From Thermodesulfobacteriota bacterium (GTDB taxonomy: Bacteria > Desulfobacterota > Desulfarculia > JACQYL01), in assembly GCA_963675595.2 (NCBI GenBank), contig CAXXLZ010000001.1, forward strand, positions 288,001 through 352,000: a stretch of 64,000 bases of DNA, written 5' to 3'. Positions 1,378 through 58,052 of this stretch are shown here, one piece after another. The translations under genes and the position numbers were made by a program. How positions within the stretch are numbered: position 1 is the first letter of the stretch; each line of letters begins with the position of its first letter. The notes beneath the pieces were generated by a model. It did not search any database. It was not told the origin of the DNA and saw only the letters and a list, made by a program, of their open reading frames with translations.

Positions 1378-1460
1378 GACAACGAGATGCCAGTCTCAAA
1401 CTCCTGATTGAATGAAGAGGACAACCCCGTTCCCGTGTTGCAGGTGCCGGCACATCTGTG
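1378..1460 (+). ncRNA. Candidate anti-flagellin-RBS structured sRNA, copy 1 (3' end unknown)
   Basis: Hairpin GAGA-TGCCAG-TCTC (1384-1397), anti-SD CTCCTGATTGAATG (1401-1414), hairpin CAGGTG-CCGGCA-CATCTG (1441-1458). Confidence 0.55.
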
Positions 1461-2438: not shown

Positions 2439-5285
2439 ATGGCATTATCCGTTGTTAACAATCTTGCATCTTTTTCCGCCCAGCAGGCCCTCACCAAGAG
2501 CACGTACCATCTTCAGAAGGCCCTGAATCATCTTTCCACCGGCTACCGCATCAACAGTGCGGCGGACGATCCCTCCGGCTTGGCCATTTCCGAGCGATTT
2601 CGCGGTCAGATTCGAGGCCTGGAGCGCGCCACGGCCAACGCCCTGGATGCTCAGTCCATGCTGCAGACCGCCGAAGGCTCGCTGGGGGAAACGCACGCCA
2701 TTCTTCAGCGCATGCGGGAACTGGCCGTTCAGGCGGCCAACGGCGTGCTCACCGGAAGCGACAGACAGGAACTGCAGCGCGAGGTGGATCAATTAAAGGA
2801 AGAAATCGACCGCATCGCCACGGCTACCGAGTTCAATACCAAGAAGCTTCTCGATGGATCCTCGGCCGCCCTGTGGAGCGCGGACGGATCGGATATCACC
2901 GCGATCATCCGAGGTCGCGTTGTGGAAGGAAACTACAAGCTGGTCAAGAACGCCGAGCCCCTGACCAATCATGTGTTGAAAACGGACATTTTTCGTTTGA
3001 AGGACGGAGCGATCTCACAAGAGGAGGAAGGGTCCGCCAACCAGTTGCGCTTCACCTTCGGTGGGGATGACGGTGAATTAACCGTGGCGGGCGGATCGAC
3101 CCTGAATTTCCGTTTCAACTTCGACGGTGTGAACAACATCGATATCGGGGTAACGGCGGGATCCGCGGACGGAAGCGGATTTACGGACGCCGAATACCTG
3201 GCGAGGGTGATCAACGCCAACTCGACCATCAGCCGATACGTCGAGGCCGAATTGGTTTCCGAAGGCGATATTGTTTTGCGGTCCAAAGAAGTCACGGAAA
3301 TCGGAGACAATTATACTCTGCAACTGGTCACCGCCGGGGGCGGGGCTTCCGCGGTGGCGGCGTGGCAGCCCAACATTACCAATTGGGGCGGAGATGAGTT
3401 GAGCTCGACCCAGACGAGCAACAACCTCTGGACTACCGCGGTACGATTCGCCGATTTCGATCTTGTTGTGGGGTCGACGGCATCGGGAACCATGGGAACC
3501 TTCGGCACGGACCGCGCGACGGCCGCCGAGAACAAAGTGATCCAATATGTGAGTAATGCGGCGGAGCTCGAGGGCGGCGACTACGAAATCACCACTGTGG
3601 CGGCGGATAACATCCCCAGCGGCCTGCAGGGTGCGGATGGTTTGAGCGTCGACGCCGGCTTGCTCATGGGCGCCTATATGAAGAGCTCTTCCACTGCGGA
3701 AGTCACCACGATTCAGGCCGCCGTGGACGCAAACCATTACGTGATCGTCGAGGTCACCGGGGCCGGCGGGAGCGGCGTGGTGGACCTCAAAGTCTCCTGG
3801 GATCAGGGCGCCACCTGGACCAACATCGGCAACTACCATGAGGGCGCGTCAATTAATAAGCTAGCCGGGGATCCGGATAACTGGTTCTCCTTGCAGTTCA
3901 ACGGCGATATGGCTACGGGGGACCGTTTGCTCATCGGATTGCAGAATGGAATCGCAGCGACCTCCAACGTGGCGCGGCTCACGGGTCCCGCCAACGAATG
4001 GACCAACATAGCGGATTCCGACGGTGGATGGGACCCGAGGGAGAACCTCGCCGGCGCGGACTTCCAGTATTTCAATCATGGGCTTTGGGAAGATTTGGGT
4101 GCCAACCCGGGAAGCAAAACCGATACTTTGACCTTTGCCCGCATGGACGAGGAAGGACGCGTAACCTTTGGCACGCTGGACGTCACCTGGGGCACCGATG
4201 CCAACTTCGAGAGCAGAAGTTCGAGCATCAACATTCTCCAAGGGGGAGACGTCGCCGGCTTGACCACGGAACTGTCCAAAATCGACCGGTTCTACGACGC
4301 CAATGGAAATTTTATTCTGGGCGATAACGGCAAGTGGATCGACATCTACACCGCCGCGGGAGATCAGGCTTCTTTTTATGTGGACGGCGGCGACACGGTA
4401 AAGGAGCTTGCCGATAAGATCGAGCAGATCATCAGCCTGGAGGCCACCTCTCAAAACTGGGAAGGCCTGGGATTGGGCACCGTACTGGATTCCGAAGGCG
4501 AGAATCATGTGGTGGACTTTGTTACCAACGCCACGGAGAACTCCGACGAAGCGGTCAAGGGAACCCTGCTCATTCGGTCGCCGAAACAAGGATTGAGCGG
4601 AATCCTTTACTTCAGCGCGGAAGAAGCCGTGCTCAACGCTCTGAGTCTGGCCACGATTAAGGACCCGTCCGAGGACGTGGACCCGTTGACGGTTGAGGTA
4701 TACGATGCGCACACGGGGGAATTGATCGGACAGGATACGGTAAGCGACAACGTGCTTCACGGCGTCATCCAGGGAGTTGATGTTCTGGTGGACGCCAATG
4801 TGGACATCAATTACTCCTGGAACGAAAACACCAAAGAAATCGACTTCTACAGCGCCACCGAAGACCAGATCGAATACCTGCACGTTGTGGACAACTCGGT
4901 GAATTTTCAGATCGGCGCCAACCCCGGGCAAATCATGGAAGCTCATATCTCACAGATGGATGCTTTGGGGCTCGGAATCGAAAACGTGCTGGTCGTGAAC
5001 CAAGCCACGGCAGTGGCCGCCTTGGACAGCATCGATGAGGCCATCCAACGGGTGTCTTCAGAACGCGCCCGACTGGGTGCCTATGTCAACCGACTCGATT
5101 TCACCATTTCGAACCTGGCCGTTCAGGAGGAGAATCAGATCGCAGCCGAGTCCCTGATTCGCGACCTCGACATGGCCATGGCCATCTCGGAGATGACCCA
5201 GTACCAGATTCTGCAGCAGGTGGGCGTTGCCATGTTGGCTCAGGCCAATGCCATGCCTCAGAGCCTCCTCAGCCTGCTCGGATAA
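2439..5285 (+). CDS. fliC: Flagellin 1 (948 aa, large variable domain)
   Basis: N-terminal LSTGYRINSAADDPSGLAISE...LQRMRELAVQAAN; C-terminal RARLGAYVNRL...IRDLDMA...MLAQAN. Confidence 0.97.
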   Translation: MALSVVNNLASFSAQQALTKSTYHLQKALNHLSTGYRINSAADDPSGLAISERFRGQIRGLERATANALDAQSMLQTAEGSLGETHAILQRMRELAVQAANGVLTGSDRQELQREVDQLKEEIDRIATATEFNTKKLLDGSSAALWSADGSDITAIIRGRVVEGNYKLVKNAEPLTNHVLKTDIFRLKDGAISQEEEGSANQLRFTFGGDDGELTVAGGSTLNFRFNFDGVNNIDIGVTAGSADGSGFTDAEYLARVINANSTISRYVEAELVSEGDIVLRSKEVTEIGDNYTLQLVTAGGGASAVAAWQPNITNWGGDELSSTQTSNNLWTTAVRFADFDLVVGSTASGTMGTFGTDRATAAENKVIQYVSNAAELEGGDYEITTVAADNIPSGLQGADGLSVDAGLLMGAYMKSSSTAEVTTIQAAVDANHYVIVEVTGAGGSGVVDLKVSWDQGATWTNIGNYHEGASINKLAGDPDNWFSLQFNGDMATGDRLLIGLQNGIAATSNVARLTGPANEWTNIADSDGGWDPRENLAGADFQYFNHGLWEDLGANPGSKTDTLTFARMDEEGRVTFGTLDVTWGTDANFESRSSSINILQGGDVAGLTTELSKIDRFYDANGNFILGDNGKWIDIYTAAGDQASFYVDGGDTVKELADKIEQIISLEATSQNWEGLGLGTVLDSEGENHVVDFVTNATENSDEAVKGTLLIRSPKQGLSGILYFSAEEAVLNALSLATIKDPSEDVDPLTVEVYDAHTGELIGQDTVSDNVLHGVIQGVDVLVDANVDINYSWNENTKEIDFYSATEDQIEYLHVVDNSVNFQIGANPGQIMEAHISQMDALGLGIENVLVVNQATAVAALDSIDEAIQRVSSERARLGAYVNRLDFTISNLAVQEENQIAAESLIRDLDMAMAISEMTQYQILQQVGVAMLAQANAMPQSLLSLLG

Positions 5286-5345: not shown

Positions 5346-5693
5346 GTAACGGTTCTCCTCCACGCCCGCCCATTTCTTCTCGGGATACCTTCGGATTCCG
5401 ATTTCGGTGACATCTCGAGCCGCCGCCACTCGTGCTTCGGCCGGACGCCGGCACACGAAGCGCTTCCCAGCCTCCGCGTCGTCCTCCGTTCCTGCATTCG
5501 TGAGAGTTGAAATCGGTACAACCCCTTAATTCCCGTCGCCGTTGACGTTATGGGCGCAGGTTGAGGCACGGCGAGGCCTCGAAGACCCGTCTGAATCGGT
5601 TGTCTTGGTGGCGTTTTCCCGGCGCTAAGGTATGCGATGGAGTAAAATTTCAATTTATGAACAAAGTCGAACACGATTTTTCTTTTATAAATG

Positions 5694-5720
5694 TAAAGTA
5701 TTTTCGCCGTTTGACGATGT
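5694..5720 (+). promoter_or_regulatory. sigma28-type promoter, distal copy 2
   Basis: TAAA-N15-GACGATGT. Confidence 0.75.
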
Positions 5721-5727
5721 AAGAATC

Positions 5728-5810
5728 AAACAGGTAATGCCACCTGAACTCCTTGATTGAATGCGGATTGGGAAGCCGAAAACTCCCGGGTGCCGGCACA
5801 TCCGGAAGAA
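5728..5810 (+). ncRNA. Candidate anti-flagellin-RBS structured sRNA, copy 2 (3' end unknown)
   Basis: Hairpin CAGGT-AATGCC-ACCTG (5731-5746); 5749-5773 is the exact reverse complement of 10277-10301; hairpin CCGGGTG-CCGGCA-CATCCGG (5786-5805). Confidence 0.65.
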
Positions 5811-6057
5811 AAAGGCGAAGTTAACCGTCACGACACACAAGAAACATCGCAACGGATGGGAGGATGATCCATCTTTCGTTAAGTCGTCGGATTCGGGCCG
5901 CCCGGGGTCGGGCATCAAACTCCGTGCAATGCTTTTCCGGCCTCCGGGATAGTCGTTAGGAACGGCACGAACCCCGAATATTCAAATCTTTCTCTCCTTT
6001 TTGATCAGCCGACAGTCCCCGGTTGAGCGCAAAATGCGCTTTTCCGCGCCTTGACAC

Positions 6058-6084
6058 TCAAGTTCGTCCGTTTCACACCGATAC
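6058..6084 (+). promoter_or_regulatory. sigma28-type promoter of flagellin 2
   Basis: TCAA-N15-ACCGATAC, positionally equivalent to the promoter at 10032. Confidence 0.65.
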
Positions 6085-6345
6085 AATTTGCGGGTAACTG
6101 CGGGGATCGCACCCGTCTCAAGCGGACGTGCATGCGATTTCCCTATCGTCTTTTGGTGATGCACGTTGATCCGAGCACCCTTGCCGGAGGGAGAGCGGAG
6201 GCGATGTGCATTGCTGCGGAAAGGGGGGGATAAGCCAACTAGAGCGCACTATTCCGTTGAGAATCGCCCCATAAGGGGACATCTCACGATGCCTTAGACG
6301 AGGGAATGGATTCCCGATCTGAGTTCAATCAAGGAGGATTGATTC

Positions 6346-9162
6346 ATGGCATTGACTGTTGTCAATAATATTGCTTCATTCGCTGCTCAGAAGGCCCTCA
6401 GTTCGAGTACCACTCACCTGCAGAACGCCCTGAACAGCCTTTCCACCGGCCTCCGCATCAACAGCGCGGCGGACGACCCGTCCGGACTGGCGATTTCCGA
6501 GCGGTTCCGCAGCCAGATTCGAGGCTTGGAACGCGCCACGTCCAACGCCTTGGACGCTCAGTCCATGCTGCAAACCGCGGAAGGCTCCCTCGGAGAAACC
6601 CACGCCATCCTGCAACGTATGCGCGAACTGGCGGTTCAAGCGGCCAACGGCGTGTTGACCGCAAGCGACCGGCAGGAAGTTCAGCGCGAAGTGGACCAGC
6701 TCAAAGAAGAAATCAACCGCATCGCCAACACCACCGAGTTCAACACCAAGAAACTGCTGGACGGTTCCTCCACGGCCCTTTGGAGCGCGAACAATTCCGA
6801 CATTGAAGCGGTCATTCGCGGAAAGGTGGCCGAAGGCAACTACAAGCTGGTGAAGAGTGCGGAGCCGCTGAGCAACCAGGTACTGAAGACGGATATCTTC
6901 CGGCTGAAAGACGGGGCCATCTCCCAGGCGGAAGAGGGTTCTCCGAACCAGATGCGGTTCACTTTCGGCGGATCGGATGCGACAATAGACGGAACCGGGG
7001 CGTCGACATTGACGTTCCGGTTCAACTTCGACGGCGTGAACAACATAGACGTATCGTTGAACTCGGCGTCGGGAGACGCCGCCCTCTTAACCGACGCGCG
7101 GTATTTGGTGGATGCCCTCAACGCCAACGCGACCATCAGCCAATACGTCGAAGTGGAGCTGGTGTCCAACTCGGACATTATCATTCGGTCCAAGGGGGTA
7201 ACGGACGAAAGCGACAATTATACCCTTCAGCTGGTGACCGGCGGAGGCGGTGCGTCGGCCGTGGCGGCGTGGCAGGCCAACATCACCAACTGGAGCGGAG
7301 ATGAGCTGAGTTCGACCCAGGCGACCAACAACCTCTTTACTTCCGCGGTCCGTTTCGCGGATTTCGATCAGATCGAAGGTCAGGTGAACTCGGGAGTGAC
7401 GGGCACCTTCGGAACGGACCGAACCACGGCCGCGCAGAACAAGGTGATCCAGTATGTGAGCAACGCCGAGAACCTCGAAGGGGGCGATTACGAAATCCTT
7501 ACCCTGTCGGCGAACGACTTTCCGAGCGGTACGGCGGGCGGAATCGGCGCTGTGGACTCCGCGTGGATTTTGGGCGCTCATCGACAAAGTTCGTCCACGG
7601 GAGAGATCGTGACCCTTACGGCGAGCGTTGACGAGAACCAGTACGTCATCGTCGAAGTGACCGGCGCAGGGGGCAGCGGCGTGGTGGACCTGAAGGTTTC
7701 CTGGGACCAGGGAGAAACCTGGACCAATGTTGGGAACTATCATGATGGGACTTCCATCAATAAGACTACCGGAGACCCGGCCAACTGGTTCTCCATGGAC
7801 TTGAACGGTGACTTGGCCACCGGCGACCGGTTCCTTTTCGGTCTGCAGGACCAATTGGATACGACCTCCAACTATGCCAGGCTGACGGGTCCCGCCAACG
7901 ATTGGTCGACCAGCTTGACCGCGGATCTGACGGAAGACTACGAGAACTTCAACCACGGGTTATGGCAGGACCTGGGAGCCAATCCGGGTGAGAAGACCCA
8001 TACCCTGACGCTTGCGAGCATGGACGAGGAAGGACGGGTGACCTTCGGCACCCTCGATGCCACCTGGGGAATGGATGACGATTTCGAGAGCCGAAGCTCG
8101 AACATCAAGATTCTCGAGGGCGGCGACGTTGCCGGTCTGACCACGGAGTTGTCCAAGATCGATCGATTCTACGACTCCAGCGGGAACTTCGTCCTGGGCG
8201 ACAGCGGCAAATGGATCGATGTCTACACCGCCGACGGAGACAACGCGTCGTTCTACGTGGACGGCGGTGATACGGTTCAGGAGCTTGCCGACAAGCTGGA
8301 ACAGATCATCAGCCTAACCTCGACTTCCCAAAACTGGGATGGTCTGGGGCTGGGCACGGTGCTGGACTCCGACGGCGAGAACCACGTGGTGGATTTCGTT
8401 ACCAACGCCACGGAGAACTCCGACGAAGCCGTCGAAGGAACCATGATCATTCGTTCGCCCAAACAAGGGGTCAACGGCTACCTCTATTTCAGTGCGGAGG
8501 AAGACCTGCTCAACGCCCTGAGTTTGGCCACCATCCAGGACCCCAAGGAAGACATCGATCCTCTCACGGTCACCGTATACAACGCCCACACGGGCGAGTT
8601 GATCGGCGAGGACACGGTGAGCGACAACGTCCTGCACGGAGTCATCCAGGGTGTGGACGTAATGGTGGACGCCAATGTGGACATCTCTTACTCCTGGAAC
8701 GATGATACTCGAGAGATCGACTTCTACAGTTCGGAAGGAGTGCAGGAAGAGTACCTCCACGTGGTGGACAATTCGGTGAACTTCCAGATCGGCGCCAACC
8801 CGGGCCAAGTGATGGAAGCCTACATCACACAGATGGATACCGTGGGATTGGGCGTTCAAAACGTTCTGGTGGTGAACCAGGAGACGGCCTCCGATGCCAT
8901 GTCCACCATCGACGACGCCATCCAAAGGGTGTCCTCGGAACGCGCCAGGCTGGGCGCTTACGTGAACCGTCTCGACTTTACCATCTCGAACCTGGCGGTT
9001 CAGGAGGAAAACCAGATCGCGGCGGAATCTTTGATCCGCGACCTGGATATGGCCAAGGCCATTTCCGAAATGACCCAGTACCAGGTGTTGCAGCAGGTGG
9101 GTGTGGCCATGCTGGCCCAGGCCAATACCTTGCCTCAGATGGTGCTGTCCCTACTCCGGTAA
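6346..9162 (+). CDS. fliC: Flagellin 2 (938 aa)
   Basis: Conserved flagellin N- and C-terminal helical domains; paralog of 2439-5285. Confidence 0.97.
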   Translation: MALTVVNNIASFAAQKALSSSTTHLQNALNSLSTGLRINSAADDPSGLAISERFRSQIRGLERATSNALDAQSMLQTAEGSLGETHAILQRMRELAVQAANGVLTASDRQEVQREVDQLKEEINRIANTTEFNTKKLLDGSSTALWSANNSDIEAVIRGKVAEGNYKLVKSAEPLSNQVLKTDIFRLKDGAISQAEEGSPNQMRFTFGGSDATIDGTGASTLTFRFNFDGVNNIDVSLNSASGDAALLTDARYLVDALNANATISQYVEVELVSNSDIIIRSKGVTDESDNYTLQLVTGGGGASAVAAWQANITNWSGDELSSTQATNNLFTSAVRFADFDQIEGQVNSGVTGTFGTDRTTAAQNKVIQYVSNAENLEGGDYEILTLSANDFPSGTAGGIGAVDSAWILGAHRQSSSTGEIVTLTASVDENQYVIVEVTGAGGSGVVDLKVSWDQGETWTNVGNYHDGTSINKTTGDPANWFSMDLNGDLATGDRFLFGLQDQLDTTSNYARLTGPANDWSTSLTADLTEDYENFNHGLWQDLGANPGEKTHTLTLASMDEEGRVTFGTLDATWGMDDDFESRSSNIKILEGGDVAGLTTELSKIDRFYDSSGNFVLGDSGKWIDVYTADGDNASFYVDGGDTVQELADKLEQIISLTSTSQNWDGLGLGTVLDSDGENHVVDFVTNATENSDEAVEGTMIIRSPKQGVNGYLYFSAEEDLLNALSLATIQDPKEDIDPLTVTVYNAHTGELIGEDTVSDNVLHGVIQGVDVMVDANVDISYSWNDDTREIDFYSSEGVQEEYLHVVDNSVNFQIGANPGQVMEAYITQMDTVGLGVQNVLVVNQETASDAMSTIDDAIQRVSSERARLGAYVNRLDFTISNLAVQEENQIAAESLIRDLDMAKAISEMTQYQVLQQVGVAMLAQANTLPQMVLSLLR

Positions 9163-9674: not shown

Positions 9675-9701
9675 TAAAGTAATTTCGCCGGTTGACGATA
9701 T
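9675..9701 (+). promoter_or_regulatory. sigma28-type promoter, distal copy 3
   Basis: TAAA-N15-GACGATAT. Confidence 0.75.
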
Positions 9702-9708
9702 ACAAATC

Positions 9709-9790
9709 AAACAGGTAATGCCACCTGAACTCCTTGATTGAATGCAGATTGGGAAGCCCGCAACTCCCGGGTGCCGGCACACCCGGAAGA
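9709..9790 (+). ncRNA. Candidate anti-flagellin-RBS structured sRNA, copy 3 (3' end unknown)
   Basis: Hairpin CAGGT-AATGCC-ACCTG (9712-9727); anti-SD CTCCTTGATTGAATGCAGATTGGGAA (9730-9755); perfect hairpin CCGGGTG-CCGGCA-CACCCGG (9767-9786). Confidence 0.65.
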
Positions 9791-10031: not shown

Positions 10032-10058
10032 TAAAGTTCCGCCTTTCCATGCCGATGC
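10032..10058 (+). promoter_or_regulatory. sigma28-type promoter of flagellin 3
   Basis: TAAA-N15-GCCGATGC, near consensus. Confidence 0.85.
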
Positions 10059-10310
10059 TATAACCGACCGACTATCGGATTTGCACGAGTCTCGTGAAGA
10101 CGTGCGTGCAGATTTCCATCTCCGAGGCGCGAGCCGCTGATCCGTGGACCCTTGCCGGAGGGCGAACGGGGATGACAAGCGCCGCGGCGAAAGGGGGGAT
10201 GCCCGGAAATATGCTGATTCTTGGGGGACGTCCCATGGGAGGGAAGTCTCTCAAAACCTCAGACAAGGGAATGGAATCCCAATCCGCATTCAATCAAGGA
10301 GGATTGATTC

Positions 10311-13157
10311 ATGGCATTGACTGTTGTCAACAACATTGCTTCCTTTGCTGCTCAGAAGGCGCTCAGCTCGAGTACCACTCACCTGCAGAACGCCCTGAAC
10401 AGCCTTTCCACCGGCCTTCGCATCAACAGCGCGGCGGACGATCCGTCCGGACTGGCGATTTCCGAGCGGTTCCGCAGCCAGATTCGGGGCTTGGAACGCG
10501 CCACGTCCAACGCCTTGGACGCCCAGTCCATGCTGCAAACCGCGGAAGGTTCTCTCGGAGAAACCCACGCCATCCTGCAACGTATGCGCGAACTGGCGGT
10601 TCAGGCGGCCAACGGCGTGTTGACCGCAAGCGACCGGCAGGAAGTTCAGCGCGAAGTGGACCAGCTCAAGGAAGAGATCAACCGCATCGCCAACACCACC
10701 GAGTTCAACACCAAAAAGCTACTGGACGGCTCCTCCACGGCCCTCTGGAGCGCGAACAATTCCGACATTGAAGCGGTGATTACGGGAAAGGTGTCCGAAG
10801 GCAACTACAAACTGGTGAAGAGCGCCGAGCCGCTCAGTAACCATGTGTTGAAGACGGACATTTTCCGGCTGAAAGACGGAGCCATCTCGCAGGCCGAAGA
10901 GGGGTCCGCGAACCAGATGCGCCTCACTTTCGGTGGAGACGACGGAGAAGTGACCGTCGCAGGCGGATCGACCCTGAACTTCCGGTTCAACTTCGACGGT
11001 GTAAACAACATCGATATCGGAGTAACCGCAGGATCCGCCGACGGCACGGGCTTTACGGACGCTGAATATCTGGCGCGGGCCATCAACGCCCACTCGACCA
11101 TCAGCCAGTACGTGGAGGCGGAACTGGTGTCCGAGGGCGATATCATTATTCGCGCCAAGGATGTGACGGACGACAGCGACAACTACACGCTGCAAATGGT
11201 GACCGCCGGAGGCGGCGCGTCGGCCGTGGCGGCGTGGCAGCCCAACATCACCAATTGGGGCGGTGATGAACTTAGCTCGACCCAGACGAGCAATAACCTC
11301 TGGACTTCCGCGGTCCGTTTCGCGGATTTCGATCAGATCGAAGGTACGGTCAACTCGGGAGTCACGGGCACCTTCGGTACGGATCGGACCACCGCCGCCG
11401 AGAACAAGGTGATCCAGTACGTCAGCAACGCCGCCGATCTCGAAGCGGGCGACTATCAGATCACAACGGTGGCAACGGGCGACATCCCCAGCGGTTTGCA
11501 GAGTACGGACGGTCTGACCGTGGATCAGGGTCTGCTCATGGGCGCTTATCTCACGAGCACGTCCACGGCGGAAGTCACGACGATTCAGGCGGCCGTGGAT
11601 GAGAATCAGTACGTTATCGTCGAGGTGACGGGAGCCGGCGGCAGCGGCGCGGTGGACCTGAAGGTTTCCTGGGACCAGGGCGCCACATGGTCCAGTGTCG
11701 GGAACTACCACGAAGGAACCTCCATCAACAAGGTCGCCGGAGACCCGGACAACTGGTTCACGCTGGAATTCACCGGGGACATGGCGACCGGAGACCGCTT
11801 GCTTATCGGGCTCCAGAACGGGATTGCAGCGACTTCCAACGTGGCGAGGCTGACCGGTCCGGCCAACGAATGGACCAATGTAACGGATTCCGACGGAGAT
11901 TGGGACCCGAGGGAAAACCTGGCCGGGGCGGATTACCAAACCTTCAATCATGGGCTGTGGGAAGACCTGGGGGCCAATCCCGGTGAGAAGACCCATACCC
12001 TGACGTTTGCGAGCATGGACGATGAAGGGCGGGTGACCTTCGGCACCCTCGACGCCACCTGGGGCGCGGATGACGACTTCGAGAGCCGAAGCTCGAGCAT
12101 CAAGATTCTCGAGGGCGGCGACGTCGCCGGTCTGACCACGGAGTTGTCCAAGATCGATCGGTTCTACGACTCCAGCGGGAACTTCGTCCTGGGCGACAGC
12201 GGCAAATGGATCGATATCTACACCGCAGAAGGAGACAACGCGTCGTTCTATGTGGACGGCGGCGACACGGTGCAGGAGCTTGCCGACAAGCTGGAGCAGA
12301 TCATCAGTCTCACCTCGACTTCCCAGAACTGGGATGGTCTGGGGCTGGGCACGGTGCTGGACTCCGACGGCGAGAACCACGTGGTGGATTTCGTTACCAA
12401 CGCCACGGAGAACTCCGACGAAGCCGTCGAAGGAACCATGATCATTCGTTCGCCCAAACAAGGGGTCAACGGCTACCTCTATTTCAGTGCGGAGGAAGAC
12501 GTACTCAACGCCCTGAGTTTGGCCACCATCCAGGACCCCAAAGAAGACATCGATCCTCTCACGGTCACCGTATACAACGCCCACACGGGTGAGTTGATCG
12601 GTGAGGATACGGTGAGCGACAACGTCCTGCACGGAGTCATCCAGGGTGTGGACGTGATGGTGGACGCCAATGTGGACATCTCCTACTCCTGGAACGAGGA
12701 TACTCGAGAGATCGACTTCTTCAGTTCGGAAGGAGTGCAGGAAGAGTACCTCCACGTGGTGGACAATTCGGTGAACTTCCAGATCGGCGCCAACCCGGGC
12801 CAAGTGATGGAAGCCTATATCACACAGATGGACACCGTGGGATTGGGCGTTCAGAACGTTCTGGTGGTGAACCAGGCGACGGCCTCCGATGCCATGTCCA
12901 CCATCGACGACGCCATCCAGAAGGTGTCCTCGGAACGCGCCAGGCTCGGCGCCTACGTGAACCGTCTCGACTTCACCATCTCGAACCTGGCGGTTCAGGA
13001 GGAAAACCAGATCGCGGCGGAATCTTTGATCCGCGACCTGGATATGGCCAAGGCCATTTCCGAAATGACCCAGTATCAGGTGTTGCAGCAGGTGGGTGTG
13101 GCCATGCTGGCCCAGGCCAACACGTTGCCTCAGATGGTGCTGTCCTTACTCCGGTAA
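10311..13157 (+). CDS. fliC: Flagellin 3 (948 aa, mosaic of flagellins 1 and 2)
   Basis: Conserved flagellin termini almost identical to flagellin 2; central blocks resemble flagellin 1. Confidence 0.97.
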   Translation: MALTVVNNIASFAAQKALSSSTTHLQNALNSLSTGLRINSAADDPSGLAISERFRSQIRGLERATSNALDAQSMLQTAEGSLGETHAILQRMRELAVQAANGVLTASDRQEVQREVDQLKEEINRIANTTEFNTKKLLDGSSTALWSANNSDIEAVITGKVSEGNYKLVKSAEPLSNHVLKTDIFRLKDGAISQAEEGSANQMRLTFGGDDGEVTVAGGSTLNFRFNFDGVNNIDIGVTAGSADGTGFTDAEYLARAINAHSTISQYVEAELVSEGDIIIRAKDVTDDSDNYTLQMVTAGGGASAVAAWQPNITNWGGDELSSTQTSNNLWTSAVRFADFDQIEGTVNSGVTGTFGTDRTTAAENKVIQYVSNAADLEAGDYQITTVATGDIPSGLQSTDGLTVDQGLLMGAYLTSTSTAEVTTIQAAVDENQYVIVEVTGAGGSGAVDLKVSWDQGATWSSVGNYHEGTSINKVAGDPDNWFTLEFTGDMATGDRLLIGLQNGIAATSNVARLTGPANEWTNVTDSDGDWDPRENLAGADYQTFNHGLWEDLGANPGEKTHTLTFASMDDEGRVTFGTLDATWGADDDFESRSSSIKILEGGDVAGLTTELSKIDRFYDSSGNFVLGDSGKWIDIYTAEGDNASFYVDGGDTVQELADKLEQIISLTSTSQNWDGLGLGTVLDSDGENHVVDFVTNATENSDEAVEGTMIIRSPKQGVNGYLYFSAEEDVLNALSLATIQDPKEDIDPLTVTVYNAHTGELIGEDTVSDNVLHGVIQGVDVMVDANVDISYSWNEDTREIDFFSSEGVQEEYLHVVDNSVNFQIGANPGQVMEAYITQMDTVGLGVQNVLVVNQATASDAMSTIDDAIQKVSSERARLGAYVNRLDFTISNLAVQEENQIAAESLIRDLDMAKAISEMTQYQVLQQVGVAMLAQANTLPQMVLSLLR

Positions 13158-21002: not shown

Positions 21003-21257
21003 TTATGCGGGCAACCGGTTCAGCGGCTCTTCGCAAAACGGGCATGAGAGCAAAAGAACGATGTCCTCTTGGGGGTCAAGAGGGTTCTTTTCCTTGCCGA
21101 AGCCGGAGGACTGGCAGAAGATGCATTTGTAGACCACATATGAGCGCTTCTTGTGAAAACAGGAAGAACATACGAACCCGATGATCTCCATGAAGTAACA
21201 AGACTCTTTGTTGATGGGTTGTCCACAGAGCCCGCATACTTCCAGGCTGTAACGCAT
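21003..21257 (-). CDS. Small protein with four CxxC motifs (double zinc finger)
   Basis: CGLC, CSSC, CIFC and CPFC in 84 aa; start could be up to 21302. Confidence 0.65.
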   Translation of the reverse strand: MRYSLEVCGLCGQPINKESCYFMEIIGFVCSSCFHKKRSYVVYKCIFCQSSGFGKEKNPLDPQEDIVLLLSCPFCEEPLNRLPA

Positions 21258-21475
21258 GCGGGTTTCGGATAGACGGGGAATGGAAGGGTCCCGGCTAAGC
21301 ATATCTTATCTCCGTTCAAACCGCGCTCGAAACCCCTGCCGCTCCCGGGACAAGAGTACGTTCGTCCCGAAACGTCGGAATTGTCGGGGGCTGCGCCGCG
21401 GGCGCTCCCGTAGCTTATGATAATGGGCAGACCAGCTGTCTCTATTATCGGCGAAAGTTCCCACGGACTTTAGCC

Positions 21476-21592
21476 GGCTCTTGAAAAACGCGATCCGCCG
21501 CGTTGCGCTTCATCCCTCATTATTTCGGCGTACTACATGTACGTTTTGTTCGGGGTTTGCGCGCCTTGACAATCATCGTTTTCCATCAGCCT
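21476..21592 (+). repeat. ~120-bp MITE-like dispersed repeat (family A)
   Basis: TGAAAAACGCGATC...GCGTTGCGCTTCATCCC...GCGCGCCTTG...CATCGTTTT, shared with 33093, 37996, 45270 and 45806. Confidence 0.8.
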
Positions 21593-21770
21593 GGGCCGGC
21601 CGAACTCTTTCCACGAGTCGGCCGGTCATTCCGAAGGTGCCGGACTCACACGGACTCTCGACTTCCTAAGTCATTGCCGTTGATGGAAGTGAAAGGTATA
21701 CTAAAAAACTCATGGTCGGCGCCGCCCCGCTTCCGGCCCCGAACGGCACCAACTACCACCGTAGAGGGTT

Positions 21771-31700: not shown

Positions 31701-33104
31701 ATGGATCGCCAGGCCTTGTTTCAAAGCCTGAGGCGGCGTTATCCCGTCTTCCGATATCGGAGCTTCCACAAGGAAGAAACGGCGGACCGCCTCAGGCTCA
31801 CCTTTCACTTCGAAATTCCTCCGGACATTCATTTCGATCCTTACGTGGAGATTTTCAGGCCGGTGACCGGGTTTGTTTATCCGGACCCGGCGGAAACGGA
31901 CAACCTCGTCTTTCACCTGGGCCTTATTGAGGCGATCAGTTACTGGAAGTGCGTGTGCGCACCGCGAATCTCCGTGGAATGCGGCGCGTTGACCTCCGAC
32001 CAGGCGGCCTGGTGGCGAGACCTGTTCCTGGACGGTCTCGGCGAATTCATCTACATCAATGGAATCGATTACCGTGGCGAACCCCTGGTGGACTTCACCT
32101 TTCCGATGGAGAGGGCCGGGACCTTCGCCAAAGGTCCATTCACGGAATTCCCCGGGAATCTCATTCCCGTGGGGGGAGGCAAGGACTCCGCCGTCACCCT
32201 GGAAGTCCTCCGACCGCTGCGGTCCCGTTCGTGGGCCTTTCTGCTGAACCCCACGCGGGCCATGACCGACTCGGTACGCATCGCCGAAATTCCCCCGGAA
32301 CGCACCCTGATCATACGCAGAGAAATCGAACCCGGACTTCTGGAACTCAACCGGCGAGGATACCTCAACGGACACACACCTTTTTCCGCCTACCTGGGGT
32401 TCCTGGGGGTGCTCTGCGCCCGCCTCACGGGATGCGGCCACATCGTGCTGTCCAATGAAACCAGTTCCAACTACGGCAACACGGAATACCTGGGACGCAC
32501 GGTGAACCATCAGTATTCCAAGAGCCTGGATTTCGAGGGGAAGTTCGACGAGTATGTCCGCGCTCACCTGGAACCGGGGATTCGGTATTTCAGCCTGCTC
32601 AGGCCCCTGGAGGAACTGCGCATCGCGCGGCTCTTCGCCTCCCTTCCCGAATACCCGGACGTGTTCCGAAGCTGCAACGCGGGCATGAAGGAAGACCGTT
32701 GGTGCGGAGAATGCGCCAAGTGTCTGTTCGTGTACATCATGCTGCACCCCTTTATGCCCCTTTCCCGTTTGACGCGTCTGTTCGGCGGGGACCTGCTGGA
32801 TCGGGAGGACCTCCTGCCCCTGTTCAAACGTCTGCTGGGAAGGGAAGGAGTCAAGCCTTTCGATTGCGTGGGCACGCAGGAGGAAGTGGGCGCCGCCCTG
32901 GCTCTGAGCCTTCAGGCCGTGCGAGACCAGGGGGGCAAGCCGCCGGTGTTGCTCGACCACTTTGGACGCCTCCTCGCGGAGGAGGGGCGAAGTCCGGATC
33001 GGGAAGCGAATCGGGCCCGGGACCTGCTTAGGCGGTTTCACACGGATCACCGGGTTCCCGAAGAATATCTACGGTTGCTCCGCCGTTTTATGGCAGACCG
33101 CTGA
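31701..33104 (+). CDS. murL: UDP-MurNAc-L-Ala-L-Glu epimerase MurL
   Basis: GGGKDS PP-loop, NGHTPFSA, LSNE, NHQYSKS, YFSLLRP, FRSCN, WCGECAKC; adjacent MurD homolog. Confidence 0.8.
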   Translation: MDRQALFQSLRRRYPVFRYRSFHKEETADRLRLTFHFEIPPDIHFDPYVEIFRPVTGFVYPDPAETDNLVFHLGLIEAISYWKCVCAPRISVECGALTSDQAAWWRDLFLDGLGEFIYINGIDYRGEPLVDFTFPMERAGTFAKGPFTEFPGNLIPVGGGKDSAVTLEVLRPLRSRSWAFLLNPTRAMTDSVRIAEIPPERTLIIRREIEPGLLELNRRGYLNGHTPFSAYLGFLGVLCARLTGCGHIVLSNETSSNYGNTEYLGRTVNHQYSKSLDFEGKFDEYVRAHLEPGIRYFSLLRPLEELRIARLFASLPEYPDVFRSCNAGMKEDRWCGECAKCLFVYIMLHPFMPLSRLTRLFGGDLLDREDLLPLFKRLLGREGVKPFDCVGTQEEVGAALALSLQAVRDQGGKPPVLLDHFGRLLAEEGRSPDREANRARDLLRRFHTDHRVPEEYLRLLRRFMADR

Positions 33105-33219
33105 AAAACGCGATCTGCAGCGTTGCGCTTCGTCCCTTGTCGCTGCGACGTACTTACATGTACGGTCTCACTCCGCGGGATTTGCGCGCCTTGCATCTCA
33201 TCGTTTTTCAACAGCCTGC
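33093..33219 (+). repeat. MITE-like repeat family A, overlapping the murL stop codon
   Basis: GCAGACCGCTGAAAAACG...CGTTTTTCAACAGCCTGC imperfect terminal inverted repeat. Confidence 0.85.
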
Positions 33220-37800: not shown

Positions 37801-37995
37801 GTTGATAATCGGACTTCCGGCGTCCTCCCGCACCATGAGCCCCACTTCGGCAGGGTCGCGCTGAATCGGACTCCGGAAGGCAAACGCCTCCCATGGGCAC
37901 CGGCTCTCGCGACAAAGCGGGTGCCGGCTCTTCATACGGGCTCTGGATTGCGGTCGGCATCGGAAGGGCGAGGAAGCGAGGGTGTAGACATTTAC

Positions 37996-38118
37996 CAGGC
38001 CGATGAAAAACGCGATCTGCGGCGTTGCGCTTCATCCCGCGTCACTGCGACGTACTCTATGTACGTCTCATTCCTCAGGAATTGCGCGCCTTGCATCTCA
38101 TCGTTTTTCAGCGGCCTG
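37996..38118 (+). repeat. MITE-like repeat family A
   Basis: CAGGCCGATGAAAAACG...CGTTTTTCAGCGGCCTG terminal inverted repeat. Confidence 0.85.
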
Positions 38119-38154
38119 CTGCAACCTGCTTTTCTCAACGGGCTGTTGATACCT

Positions 38155-45269: not shown

Positions 45270-45394
45270 GACTTGTTGAAATACGGGATCAGCGGCGATG
45301 AACTTCATCCGTCTTCGCTGTAACGTGTGTAAGTGCTCGGCTCGGTCCTCAGTATCGCGCGCGCCTTGCGTTCCATCCTGTTTCAACAGCCTGC
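45270..45394 (+). repeat. Degenerate MITE-like repeat family A
   Basis: TGTTGAAA...GCGCGCCTTGC...TTTCAACAGCCTGC. Confidence 0.6.
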
Positions 45395-51253: not shown

Positions 51254-51445
51254 AATATTGCCAAGACTTCGGAGAATCAACGGCAACAGGTAGTATCTGG
51301 AATTCTTCGTGCTTTGTTGGTATTTGTTCACACCGTTTCCGGGGGGACATCGTTCACCCGGACCCCCAGTTGCGCTTTTGCGAATCGCGTACGCGATTCG
51401 CAAAACGAGCAGCATGTGCCGTACAATTTATTAAAATACCTAAAG

Positions 51446-51991
51446 TTTCCTATGTGGCCTCAAATCAAGCCGAAATTGAATAACCTTTTCCTATTCGCGC
51501 CCGAAGCGCCAAGTACGCATGCGATGCTAAAACGAAGATGCCGCCATTTGCAGGACGCTGCGAATACAGCCAAACTTTAGCCGCGGCCACCCTCGCTGTT
51601 ACCGAATCGGCTTGAGGCACGGGACCCACCTCAAGTAGGGTCCCGAGCCGGTTGAGTCCGGTTAAACGTGTTTCGGGGGCTTCACGCCTGGGTTGCTTGG
51701 AGACGAAATTCAAAACACCGCTTTTCCAGGGTCAATCGCCACAAAATAAGGGCGAGTTTTCGTGCCAATGCGCAGATGGCCTTTTGGGGAAGACCCGTTC
51801 GACCCAGGAGTTTACGATAATGCAATTCGGCCGCCGGATCTTTGGACTTCCACGTCCAGGCCGCCTCCACCAACAGGCTCCGAAGCCGCGTCTGCCCCAC
51901 CGGATGAAGCGCTCCTCGGAATTTCCGCTCTCCGCTTTGTCGCACCAATGGGGCGAGTCCCAAGTAGCTGGTGACCTCCTCCGCCCGGAGA
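51446..51991 (-). mobile_element. Truncated IS1111-type IS110 copy (3' transposase plus downstream ncRNA end)
   Basis: Closely similar to 55800-56349 (EEVTSYLGLAP...ALARKLA; end TTGAGGCCACATAGGAAA). Confidence 0.9.
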
Positions 51992-56356: not shown

Positions 56357-57890
56357 GAAAGTTTCCCCCGGTCCCCTTTCAAAACGTTTTAAGAGTGCCT
56401 CACCGCCTACGGCGGAGAGGGTGAGGGGGAAAATCAGGTTTGCTCGGTAATCTCCGGCGTTCCTCACATCTCCTAAGTGGACCAAAAATCTCGTAGGCAT
56501 TCGCGGGAGGAACTCGTCTATTGTAGGGGCAGGCCACAGTGCCTGCCCGAAAGACAGCCGAAGGCCCACCTTCTTCACTGCGCTACTAACCACTCCCTAC
56601 TCAAACGCCTCAAGCCGGCTTCACCGCCTTGGGCGGACTGAAGCTTCCCATGCAAGAACGCATTCAATCATAGGGGAGAGTACGGGTCCACGCCACGGAC
56701 CTCCCGGGAACGCCGAGCCCCAGCTCGGCAGACTTCTTTCCCTCCATCCGCCGTACCGTGAGGGTCACTCGCGGTTGTTCGTCCCGATGCACAGCGGACC
56801 GGGATGGTCTTGGCCGCGCGATTGACTCCGCCCCTGTGCCGAGCTGGGGCTCGGCGCTCCCAGGGCAACCAACCACGCTGTGAACGTGCCCCAACGTTCG
56901 TCTTACGCGTTCACGGGGTATTCGCGAAGAGCTCGGCAAACTTGCCGACGGGTTGCTCGTTTCGGTCTTGCGAATCGCGTACGCAATTCACAAAACAAGC
57001 AGCATGTGCCGTTCAACCGATTAAAACACCTGAAGTTTTTCGGAAGGAGCCCGAGGGAACCCTTTTTTCAAAAAGGGTTCCCTCGGATCCCCCTCTGAAG
57101 GCTCACAACTGAAATTTCCCCCGGTCCCCTTTCAAAGCGTTTTAAGAGTGCCTCACCGCCTACGGCGGAGAGGGTGAGGGGGAAAATCAGGTTTGCTCGG
57201 TAATCTCCGGCGCTCCTCACATCTCCTAAGTGGACCAAAAATCTCGTAGGCATTCGCGGGAGGAACTCGTCTATTGTAGGGGCAGGCCACAGTGCCTGCC
57301 CGAAAGACGGCCGAAGGCCCACCTTCTTCTCTGCGCTACTAACCACTCCCTACTCAAACGCCTCAAGCCGGCTTCACCGCCTTGGGCGGACTGAAGCTTT
57401 CCATGCAAGAACGTATTCAATCACAGGGCAAAGTCCGAGTCTCCGCCACGGACCCCCTGGGAACGCCGAGCCCCAGCTCGGCAGACTTCTTTCCATCCAT
57501 CCGCCGTACCGTGAAGGTCATCCGCGGTTGTTCGTCCCGATGCACAGCGGACCGGGATGGTCTTGGCCGCGCGATTGTCTCCGGCCCCTGTGCCGAGCTG
57601 GGGCTCGGCGCTCCCAGGGCAACCAACCACGCTGTGAACGTGCCCCAACGTTCTTCTTACGCGTTCACCGGGTATTCACCAAGAGCTCGGCAAACTTGCC
57701 GACGGGTTGCTCGTTTCACTTCTGCGGATCGCGTACGCAATTCACAAAACGAGCAGCATGTGCCGTCCAACCTATTAAAACACCTGAAGTTTTTCGGAAG
57801 GAGCCCGAGGGAACCCTCTTTTCAAAAAGGGTTCCCTCGGATCCCCAAAGCGTTTTAGAGTGCCTCACCGCCTGCGGCGGGGAGGCTGCG
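56357..57890 (+). repeat. Tandem duplication of a ~750-bp composite REP unit plus the start of a third copy
   Basis: GAGTGCCTCACCGCCT(A/G)CGGCGG at about 56393, 57146 and 57858; the first two units align along their length. Confidence 0.9.
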
Positions 57891-58052
57891 GAAGAGTTCA
57901 GGTTTCCTCACTCATTCCCAACGTTCCTTACATCTGCTGAATCGGCTAAGATGCCCCCAAGTTCGGCTTCGTCCCGCCAGGGACGGAGCCCGCGTCAGGG
58001 GGTCCGGGGGAACGACGTTCCCCCGGAAACGGTATGAAAGAATAGTCGGCGT

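Follow-up and report, generated by a model that had tools for sequence, protein, structure and literature searches.

An inverted copy of the flagellin initiation region behind a sigma-28-type promoter motif: a candidate antisense RNA gene in a flagellin array of Thermodesulfobacteriota

Introduction

What is the short element that stands once ahead of each gene of a tandem flagellin array in a bacterium of the phylum Thermodesulfobacteriota? The stretch of DNA analysed here (hereafter the window) comprises 64,000 nucleotides, positions 288,001 to 352,000 of contig CAXXLZ010000001.1, and belongs to a genome of 6.8 Mb with 56% G+C. It holds three tandem flagellin units, each of which carries one copy of the element and closes with a flagellin gene: fla1 (948 aa, 2439-5285, + strand) and its paralogues fla2 (6346-9162) and fla3 (10311-13157). 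The encoded proteins of ~948 aa contain Flagellin_N and Flagellin_C domains, and flaG is the next gene downstream. The element copies lie at 1384-1458, 5731-5805 and 9712-9786, upstream of the flagellin ATGs at 2439, 6346 and 10311 by 1025, 569 and 557 nt. A first-pass annotation of this DNA had read them as covarying hairpins joined to each other by a loop-loop contact, with a protein operator as the other possibility.

We propose instead that each element belongs to an anti-leader RNA gene, the product of which, a separate RNA of ~85-105 nt, would repress flagellin translation by acting in trans on the three linked mRNAs. We put the probability of this reading, which is drawn from sequence, at about 0.55; the action would most likely be in trans, with cis action as a possibility. 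The observation behind it is a promoter-like block joined to sequence complementary to the translation initiation region (TIR) of the flagellin gene, kept target-specific across three genera. If the RNA is made, it would place an RNA layer atop sigma-28 and FliW-CsrA in the control of flagellin in a little-studied, sulfate-reducer-like lineage, and it would present an unusually clear case of a bacterial regulatory RNA arising as a reverse copy of its target's leader and then co-evolving with it. The three regulator-target pairs in one array would also allow direct tests of specificity and of cross-talk between paralogues. Throughout, the genome of the window (G000) is considered together with two genomes from other genera of the same GTDB family (G001 and G002), and a further genome, G094, represents the sister family.

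The inverted copy of the flagellin initiation region

The TIR test region (-60 to +25) was reverse-complemented and aligned locally with the upstream DNA. This alignment picks out exactly the elements in the three units, with scores of 32, 37 and 49 against shuffled maxima of 26, 27 and 25. A blastn search of element 2 against the genome returns a minus-strand match of 25/25 in the leader of fla3, better than its match to its own fla2. The sequence CTCCTTGATTGAAT has five matches at ≤2 mismatches where 0.61 are expected, a number reached by 0 of 100 shuffles; two, in elements 2 and 3, are on the + strand, and three, at the flagellin ribosome-binding sites, are on the minus strand. The strand between the hairpins, which the first-pass annotation had called anti-Shine-Dalgarno, is thus a real antisense of the flagellin ribosome-binding site.

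The resemblance occupies the first ~55 nt from the predicted transcript start, which form an inverted and condensed copy of the TIR with its first codons, ATG, Shine-Dalgarno (SD) sequence and CsrA-type hairpins. Homology between element and target starts at the predicted +1 (1379) and then runs through codons 6 to 3, the start codon, the spacer and the SD into the leader. The predicted anti-leader RNA 1 covers 1376-1465 on the + strand and runs colinearly with the reverse-complemented leader and first codons of fla1; its 5' end is a prediction accurate to a few nt, and the 3' end at 1465 is nominal. In element 1, hairpin 1 (GAGA-TGCCAG-TCTC, 1384-1397, + strand, -5.1 kcal/mol) bears in its loop the (A)TGCC that is antisense to ATGGCA. 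It is followed on the same strand by the pyrimidine-rich antisense core AAACTCCTGATTGAATG (1398-1414), which complements the fla1 SD hairpin and the leader upstream of it and is one base short relative to its target, and then by the distal hairpin CAGGTG-CCGGCA-CATCTG (1441-1458; predicted fold, -10.6 kcal/mol). RNAs 2 and 3 are predicted on the + strand as well, at 5724-5808 (with hairpin 1 at 5731-5746, the antisense segment at 5749-5777 and the distal hairpin at 5786-5805) and at 9705-9789 (with hairpin 1 at 9712-9727, the antisense segment at 9730-9754 and the distal hairpin at 9767-9786). On the target, the antisense segment spans the loop and 5' arm of the SD hairpin and extends over the 3' half of the neighbouring GGA hairpin. 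A tiny open reading frame (ORF) that begins at the conserved ATGCC (6-10 codons, Met-Pro alone shared, no SD) was considered as an encoded product and judged to be a by-product of the antisense sequence.

How strong is the predicted pairing? Duplexes were computed on trimmed segments and by cofolding; full-length duplex folding gave unrealistic long-range pairings. For the five elements, three in the window and one each in G001 and G002, the 5' part of the RNA is predicted to pair with its cognate TIR at -70.2, -59.6, -61.0, -43.6 and -46.3 kcal/mol, against minima of -41.8, -34.8, -32.2, -34.2 and -32.4 kcal/mol for shuffled RNAs, and all five elements beat every shuffle. The free energy difference upon cofolding (ddG) is -24 to -40 kcal/mol against shuffled means of -5 to -8, with RNA 1 at -40.0 against a shuffled mean of -7.0. 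Perfectly complementary cores measure 14-25 nt within near-continuous complementarity of ~50 nt. The complementarity is imperfect and includes indels, the element being a separate, co-oriented inverted repeat located 467-1025 nt upstream.

The pairing is also specific to the cognate target. Among 12 flagellin TIRs, each of the five RNAs pairs best with a flagellin of its own array, and the unlinked flagellins fla4 and fla5 reach -27 to -40 kcal/mol at best with the RNAs. Where the SD-AUG spacers of the targets read UUGAGA, UUCA, GAAUC and UGAAAC, the RNAs carry UCUCAA, UGAA, GAUUC and GUUUUA, and codons 3-6 are mirrored in the RNA of each unit. The leader of G002 contains a block, CCCCAAAGCGUUAC, that is unrelated to the sequence in G000, and this block is matched by GUAACGCUUUGAGG in the corresponding RNA.

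Predicted promoter of the element

Directly 5' of all five elements stands the motif TAAAGT-N13-15-G(A/T)CGAT, the best conserved block of the alignment. The flagellar sigma-28 consensus is TAAA-N15-GCCGATAA, and the promoter call is a matter of motif resemblance to this consensus only. In element 1 the block lies at 1344-1369 (TAAAGT-N..-GTCGATG), a pattern match that is near-invariant in the five-element alignment; those of elements 2 and 3, identified by motif match and alignment, lie at 5694-5719 and 9675-9700, all three on the + strand. The same class of motif occurs 220-290 nt upstream of the flagellin ATGs, where it would represent the proximal promoters of fla1 (2219-2244, + strand), fla2 (~6058-6084) and fla3 (~10032-10057), and six of the 19 genome-wide matches to the loose motif fall into flagellin upstream regions. 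The genome contains fliA, csrA and fliW, with csrA adjacent to fliW. To judge from the motif, the + strand of the element would be transcribed by the sigma-28 (FliA) polymerase, as would the flagellin genes.

Transcription of the opposite strand seems hardly credible to us. A minus-strand transcript would be a mimic of the flagellin leader with an SD-like CAAGGAG and a terminator-like hairpin end, serving as a decoy for CsrA, and both csrA and fliW are indeed present. In copies 2 and 3, hairpin 1 has TTTGATT(T/C)(G/T)T behind it on this strand and was called terminator-like. The T-rich tail is missing in copy 1, however, no promoter motif is seen on the minus strand, and a single GGA is left in the mimic, with both CsrA-type hairpins disrupted. 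Such a transcript would also leave the strongly conserved promoter block of the + strand unexplained.

Target leaders and predicted mode of action

What would the RNA encounter on the flagellin message? Two features are common to all flagellin leaders of the order: a hairpin of the GGGAAnGGAnTCCC type with GGA in its loop, and the hairpin TCAATC-AAGGAG-GATTGA with the SD in its loop. In the fla1 leader these CsrA-type sites occupy 2395-2410 and 2418-2435 on the + strand; the equivalents at 6302-6342 (fla2) and 10267-10307 (fla3) complete the set, which is the target of the antisense core. Flagellin mRNAs under CsrA control are known to have this layout of two GGA sites. The genome contains the csrA and fliW genes, the leaders contain two GGA sites, one of them over the SD, and CsrA is predicted to bind these sites.

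On the flagellin mRNA, the anti-leader RNA would base-pair along the AUG and first codons, along the SD hairpin and, further upstream, along the 3' half of the GGA hairpin. This pairing would block access of ribosomes and of CsrA alike, and the duplex of RNA and mRNA could be a substrate of RNase III. The outcome would be lower or delayed translation of flagellin, possibly with a tuned ratio of the flagellin paralogues. In G000, the TGCC loop of hairpin 1 would present the anti-start-codon bases. More tentatively, the CCGGCA loop may meet a leader loop with UGCCGG or GUGCCG as a second contact that starts or stabilises the duplex, and the distal hairpin might in addition cap the 3' end of the RNA.

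The leader loop in question belongs to a hairpin that we call HP-A. In fla1 it lies at 2360-2378 on the + strand, with a CGTCAT/ATGACG stem and a UUGCCGG loop region that complements the loop of the distal hairpin; its equivalents, with CCCT/AGGG stems, lie at 6178-6191 and 10149-10162 on the same strand. HP-A with UGCCGG or GUGCCG in its loop region is a predicted hairpin in all five cognate leaders, ~70-165 nt upstream of the AUG, and its motif occurs in none of the seven element-free flagellin leaders. The stems that support it are of four kinds (CGTCAT/ATGACG, CCCT/AGGG, GTCCC/GGGAC and GGTTCC/GGAACC), at energies of -6.6 to -13.3 kcal/mol. CCGGCA(C) and (U/G)UGCCG(G) are complementary in 5/5 units, which suggests a 6-bp CCGGCA:UGCCGG loop-loop contact between RNA and mRNA. 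Descent of the distal hairpin from HP-A as its reverse complement was considered as well, and was given up when a shuffle test lent it no statistical support.

Hairpins, loops and palindrome

Could the two hairpins of the element rather interact with each other? The letters reported in the first-pass annotation, namely the two hairpins with their invariant TGCC and CCGGCA loops, and a 10-bp palindrome, are present as described in all three copies. The stems of hairpin 1 are GAGA/TCTC (1384-1387/1394-1397) in copy 1 and CAGGT/ACCTG in the other two (5731-5735/5742-5746 and 9712-9716/9723-9727), with TGCC in each loop. The distal stems are CAGGTG/CATCTG (1441-1458), CCGGGTG/CATCCGG (5786-5805) and CCGGGTG/CACCCGG (9767-9786), and the loop is always CCGGCA. 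ViennaRNA predicts both hairpins in all three copies. In short windows they are modestly better than shuffles, with energies of -5.1 and -5.7 kcal/mol for hairpin 1 (z -1.8 and -3.0) and of -10.6, -11.2 and -13.8 kcal/mol for the distal hairpin (z -2.1, -1.8 and -2.6). In the centroid folds of elements 2 and 3 the two hairpins alone form, and the antisense segment remains unpaired.

The description of these hairpins as covarying was too strong. Hairpin 1 pairs alignment columns 15-28 to 18-25 in copy 1 and columns 12-29 to 16-23 in copy 2, and its loop is UGCCAG in one version and AAUGCC in the other. One conserved motif is enclosed by two distinct small hairpins; compensatory substitution within the same pairs is not what separates them. 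In the distal stem, one two-sided change (A-U to G-C) and one change from G-U to G-C separate the copies. Counted over the five homologues, the distal stem and the proposed TGCC:GGCA contact together show a two-sided change in one of ten pairs, and the covariation score of 0.080 lies below the shuffled mean of 0.118, with 434 of 500 shuffles as high. RNAalifold retains the distal hairpin only, at -3.6 kcal/mol with a covariation term of +1.08. In G002 the distal hairpin has a wholly different stem of 11 bp with the loop ACCGGCAC (-17.0 kcal/mol); in G001 it is less clear and the CCGGCA motif falls partly into the stem, which leaves the motif in a loop in 4/5 elements.

The earlier model, an intramolecular TGCC:GGCA kissing pseudoknot that frames the antisense strand like a guide, appears improbable in the light of these comparisons. 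Both motifs do occur in 5/5 elements, the pairing is found in four of the five aligned rows with the fifth offset by one column, the complementarity reaches 5 bp in G001 (UGCCG:CGGCA), and both hairpins are predicted in the three copies of the window. The contact otherwise comprises 4 bp only, however, and a compensatory change is found in none of the four pairs, whose bases never vary among what are only five sequences; the check for covariation among these homologues gave the contact no support. Hairpin 1 is moreover missing in G002, whose orthologue gives -0.4 kcal/mol, and in the orthologue of G001 another fold takes its place. Each of the two motifs can also be accounted for otherwise. 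TGCC lies within AATGCCA or GATGCCA, the antisense of the start context ATGGCAT that is invariant at the beginning of all three flagellin genes, and its conservation can be understood without a partner loop; CCGGCA has a better, 6-nt partner in the target leader. The two conserved loops would accordingly be better read as contacts for the flagellin message than for each other.

The palindrome raises the question of a function at the level of DNA. An exact GTGCCGGCAC occurs at 1444, 5790 and 9771, and these three perfect copies are three of just nine in the 6.8-Mb genome. It might be a protein operator; another version regards the repeats of element and TIR, which bracket the proximal promoter, as the crossover sites of an invertible promoter in flagellar phase variation. 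We consider a DNA-level function of either kind very improbable. The perfect 10-bp form is found in this genome only, the palindrome being imperfect in G001 and G002, where the core shared across genera is the asymmetric CCGGCAC alone, and the other six genomic copies have no common context. As regards the invertible switch, the identical repeat cores vary between units in position and in length, from 8 to 25 nt, and the ORFs of the unit-1 spacer have no Pfam match, nor is a recombinase seen there. No strand-switch joint is among the joints listed for the contigs of four runs (contigs drop rare forms).

Conservation among relatives

The element is present in 3/3 genomes of the family: three copies in G000, one in G001 (L048:2956-3085, 481 nt upstream of the flagellin ATG) and one in G002 (L050:870-1005, minus strand, 467 nt upstream). 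Both of the latter carry the promoter, ATGCC, CTCCTT and CCGGCAC. A blastn search with the element finds nothing in the two family genomes and five short matches, with E of 8e-4 to 0.04, in 94 other genomes of the class. This search is blind to the G002 orthologue, and the relatives were found by the inverted-TIR test together with reading of the sequence. A covariance model built from the five elements recovers them at E of 1e-24 to 1e-29 and nothing better than E 8e-4 in the other 92 class genomes; none of seven weak matches that were inspected is near a flagellin gene.

The inverted-TIR test was likewise negative beyond these five. Upstream of the flagellins G001a and G002a, three flagellins of G094 and fla4, no case (0/6) was above the shuffled maximum or truly antisense, and none was found at the best flagellin locus of 26 other class genomes (0/26). 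In scans of metagenome and genome contigs with a narrow promoter pattern, one of 30 loci was an element, on the G001 contig, and the others appear to be coding sequence for a conserved protein, or chance matches. Rfam, including its cyclic di-GMP (c-di-GMP) riboswitches, has no match at gathering score over the window and none at E≤1 over 5600-6400. A mobile element, such as a miniature inverted-repeat transposable element (MITE), was rejected, as the element is without further copies in the genome.

What is conserved around the flagellin genes is narrowly confined. Within the upstream regions of 600-1260 nt, conservation is seen in the element and in the final ~45 nt of the leader, both between units 1 and 2 and across genera, and the sole additional blastn match is one of promoter to promoter. 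The promoter block is orthologous in all five elements, so that independent origins are unlikely. Could the element nonetheless be a neutral relic, left when the flagellin 5' end was long ago duplicated in inverted orientation, and now functionless beside a duplicated promoter? It is clearly descended from the TIR or homogenised with it, as that scenario would have it. We think such a relic improbable all the same: the element is one of two conserved islands in upstream regions that are otherwise unalignable, it is so in three genera, and the cognate-specific complementarity is kept in each lineage. A ~97%-identical strain (contigs of run X3) points weakly in the same direction. Among the changes listed, one falls in the 115-nt element 1 (1384 G>A, at the outer pair of hairpin 1); the preceding 143 nt contain six and the following 482 nt contain 15, a difference that is not significant taken alone.

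Contigs of two other runs depart from the window within the array. In run X7 a contig is without 5826-5962, directly past the conserved block of element 2; the block common to elements 2 and 3 runs up to 5825 (repeat family D11). In run X9 a contig joins 5723 to 9705 and skips 3981 nt, which is exactly one flagellin unit; either the array has a variant with two copies, or the assembly collapsed at the repeated elements.

Action in trans or in cis

Several of our results weigh against a separate anti-leader RNA and have to be set beside the evidence for it. The evidence of conservation consists of five sequences from three related genomes, and the inverted-TIR score in G002 is borderline (25 against shuffled maxima of 26 and 24 in two tests). 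Cognate-specific complementarity could stem from selection on pairing or from repeated gene conversion between inverted repeats. The loose sigma-28 regular expression is not enriched genome-wide, with 19 matches against 19.8 expected, and the whole RNAs of ~90 nt fold no better than shuffles (z -0.94, +0.09 and -0.67). At the second loop contact, the chance of the hexamer occurring in a 250-nt leader is 0.09-0.14 per lineage, the lineages being related, and the minimum-energy fold of G000 narrows the loop of HP-A to GCC or GCCG. Against the reverse-complemented leader, the distal part of the RNA shows no significant similarity (168, 200, 447, 31 and 220 of 500 shuffles score as high), and the link to HP-A therefore comes down to the 6-nt complementarity. 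Finally, no canonical intrinsic terminator follows the distal hairpin, which is without a U tract and continues into AAGAAAAAGG or GC-rich sequence. A scan of the + strand finds no terminator-like site between elements 2 and 3 and the flagellin promoters or genes, and in unit 1 it finds one weak site only, at 1970-1984, between element and flagellin gene. Read-through is thus possible.

In the cis version, the distal sigma-28 transcript would read through 467-1025 nt into the flagellin gene, and its anti-TIR segment would fold onto its own TIR. The cell would then hold a silent or RNase III-processed long mRNA beside a translatable one from the proximal promoter. The paucity of terminator-like sites and the distal hairpin without a U tract favour this version, and the complementarity data fit it as well as they fit action in trans. 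We still hold it to be unlikely, although it is the competing explanation that we take most seriously, and favour action in trans because the spacer is unconserved and variable in length (1025, 569, 557, 481 and 467 nt), because the related strain of run X7 lacks 137 nt of it directly past the conserved block, and because element 2 fits the leader of fla3 (25/25) better than that of fla2, a hint of cross-talk in trans. Nor is there an obvious logic in a second promoter of the same class yielding nothing but dead mRNA.

Comparison with known regulators

Which known systems resemble the proposed anti-leader RNA? In the plasmid control systems CopA/CopT and RNAI/RNAII, the hairpin loops of the antisense RNA contact loops of the target first, and an extended duplex over the TIR follows. 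Complementary hairpin loops in regulator and target are the point of likeness, and in our case they are proposed from 6-nt complementarity. The plasmid RNAs are encoded on the opposite strand and are fully complementary to their targets, whereas the element is a separate, co-oriented and imperfect inverted repeat 467-1025 nt away. In Bacillus subtilis, the translation of the flagellin Hag from hag is controlled by FliW-CsrA. FliW-CsrA likewise controls the translation of flaA in Campylobacter jejuni (PMC4894983). The target leaders in our system have the two GGA sites to be expected under such control, one of them in the loop of the SD hairpin. FliW-CsrA is a protein-based switch, and the element would be an added RNA layer over the same sites.

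The closest functional analogue is the small RNA (sRNA) FlaX of Vibrio cholerae (PMC11879080). FlaX originates from a flagellin locus and is expressed as part of the flagellar cascade; RNase E cuts it from the 3' untranslated region (UTR) of flaA, and it depends on RpoN/FlrA-C and acts together with ProQ. It pairs at three separate sites of the flaB 5' UTR, including the ribosome-binding site, blocks 30S binding, and alters both filament composition and when expression occurs. The two would share pairing to a flagellin leader at several sites. Unlike FlaX as described there, the element would have its own sigma-28-type promoter upstream of the target; it comes in one copy per flagellin paralogue, belongs to Thermodesulfobacteriota, and is an inverted copy of the target leader with perfect cores of 14-25 nt; it is without sequence relation to FlaX (no Rfam match).

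Small RNAs under sigma-28 are known from other bacteria. In Escherichia coli, UhpU, MotR, FliX and FlgO arise from FliA-dependent promoters (PMC10578931), as does CJnc170/FlmR in C. jejuni (PMC11187230); they feed back on the synthesis of flagella and on flagellin levels. In the accessible parts of these reports, they are UTR-derived or have other targets (lrhA, ribosomal protein mRNAs, flgM), and none is described there as an inverted copy of a flagellin TIR. Our search of the open-access full-text literature found no description of a flagellin-linked RNA of such build.

The proposed origin of the element has its parallel elsewhere. In the open-access literature searched, the one case that turned up of a regulator arising through inverted duplication of the target was that of plant microRNAs, among them miR163 (PMC5388894). 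The likeness is that the regulator gene starts as an inverted duplicate of its own target. The plant systems are eukaryotic, employ Dicer and Argonaute and depend on a self-folding repeat; in the element a single arm would be transcribed and pair with the mRNA.

A bolder and more tentative proposal goes beyond the anti-leader RNA as such, and we would expect the odds to be against it. The elements might encode sigma-28-driven 'mirror' RNAs that form a family, each having arisen as an inverted duplicate of its own target's leader and being kept in step with that target as the paralogues diverge. Two loop contacts, one with the start codon and one of CCGGCA with UGCCGG, would nucleate a duplex of 50-90 bp that overrides FliW-CsrA and sets which paralogue is translated. 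If this is true, bacteria would here parallel the way in which plant microRNA genes are born from their targets, and the kissing antisense control seen in plasmids would have a chromosomal use.

Further features of the array and the window

The unlinked flagellin gene fla4 (G000:C2:2595464-2596060, outside the window) has two tandem sigma-28-type motifs upstream, with no antisense element and no UGCCGG hairpin. An apparent antisense match for this gene on another contig turned out to be the ribosome-binding site of another gene in sense orientation. Within the window, one more sigma-28-type motif (TAAAGT..CGCCGATA) lies on the minus strand at 21446-21472 and points leftwards to small ORFs at 21003-21319, possibly the sign of another late flagellar gene. 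Immediately upstream of element 1, a 144-aa ORF without a Pfam match occupies 740-1174 on the minus strand, and a gene for an ankyrin-repeat protein ends at 493.

The window also contains repeats of other kinds. Intergenic direct repeats of 55-83 nt, 61-89% identical and present in three to four copies, lie at 21469-21594, 33089-33219, 37991-38119 and 45340-45394 (families D13 and D14). Tandem units of ~753 nt, 95-98% identical and each with a GC-rich hairpin-like motif, extend over 56359-57891 (D8, D10, D12 and D17), and an 80-nt relative is found 5.6 kb upstream, at 51369-51448.

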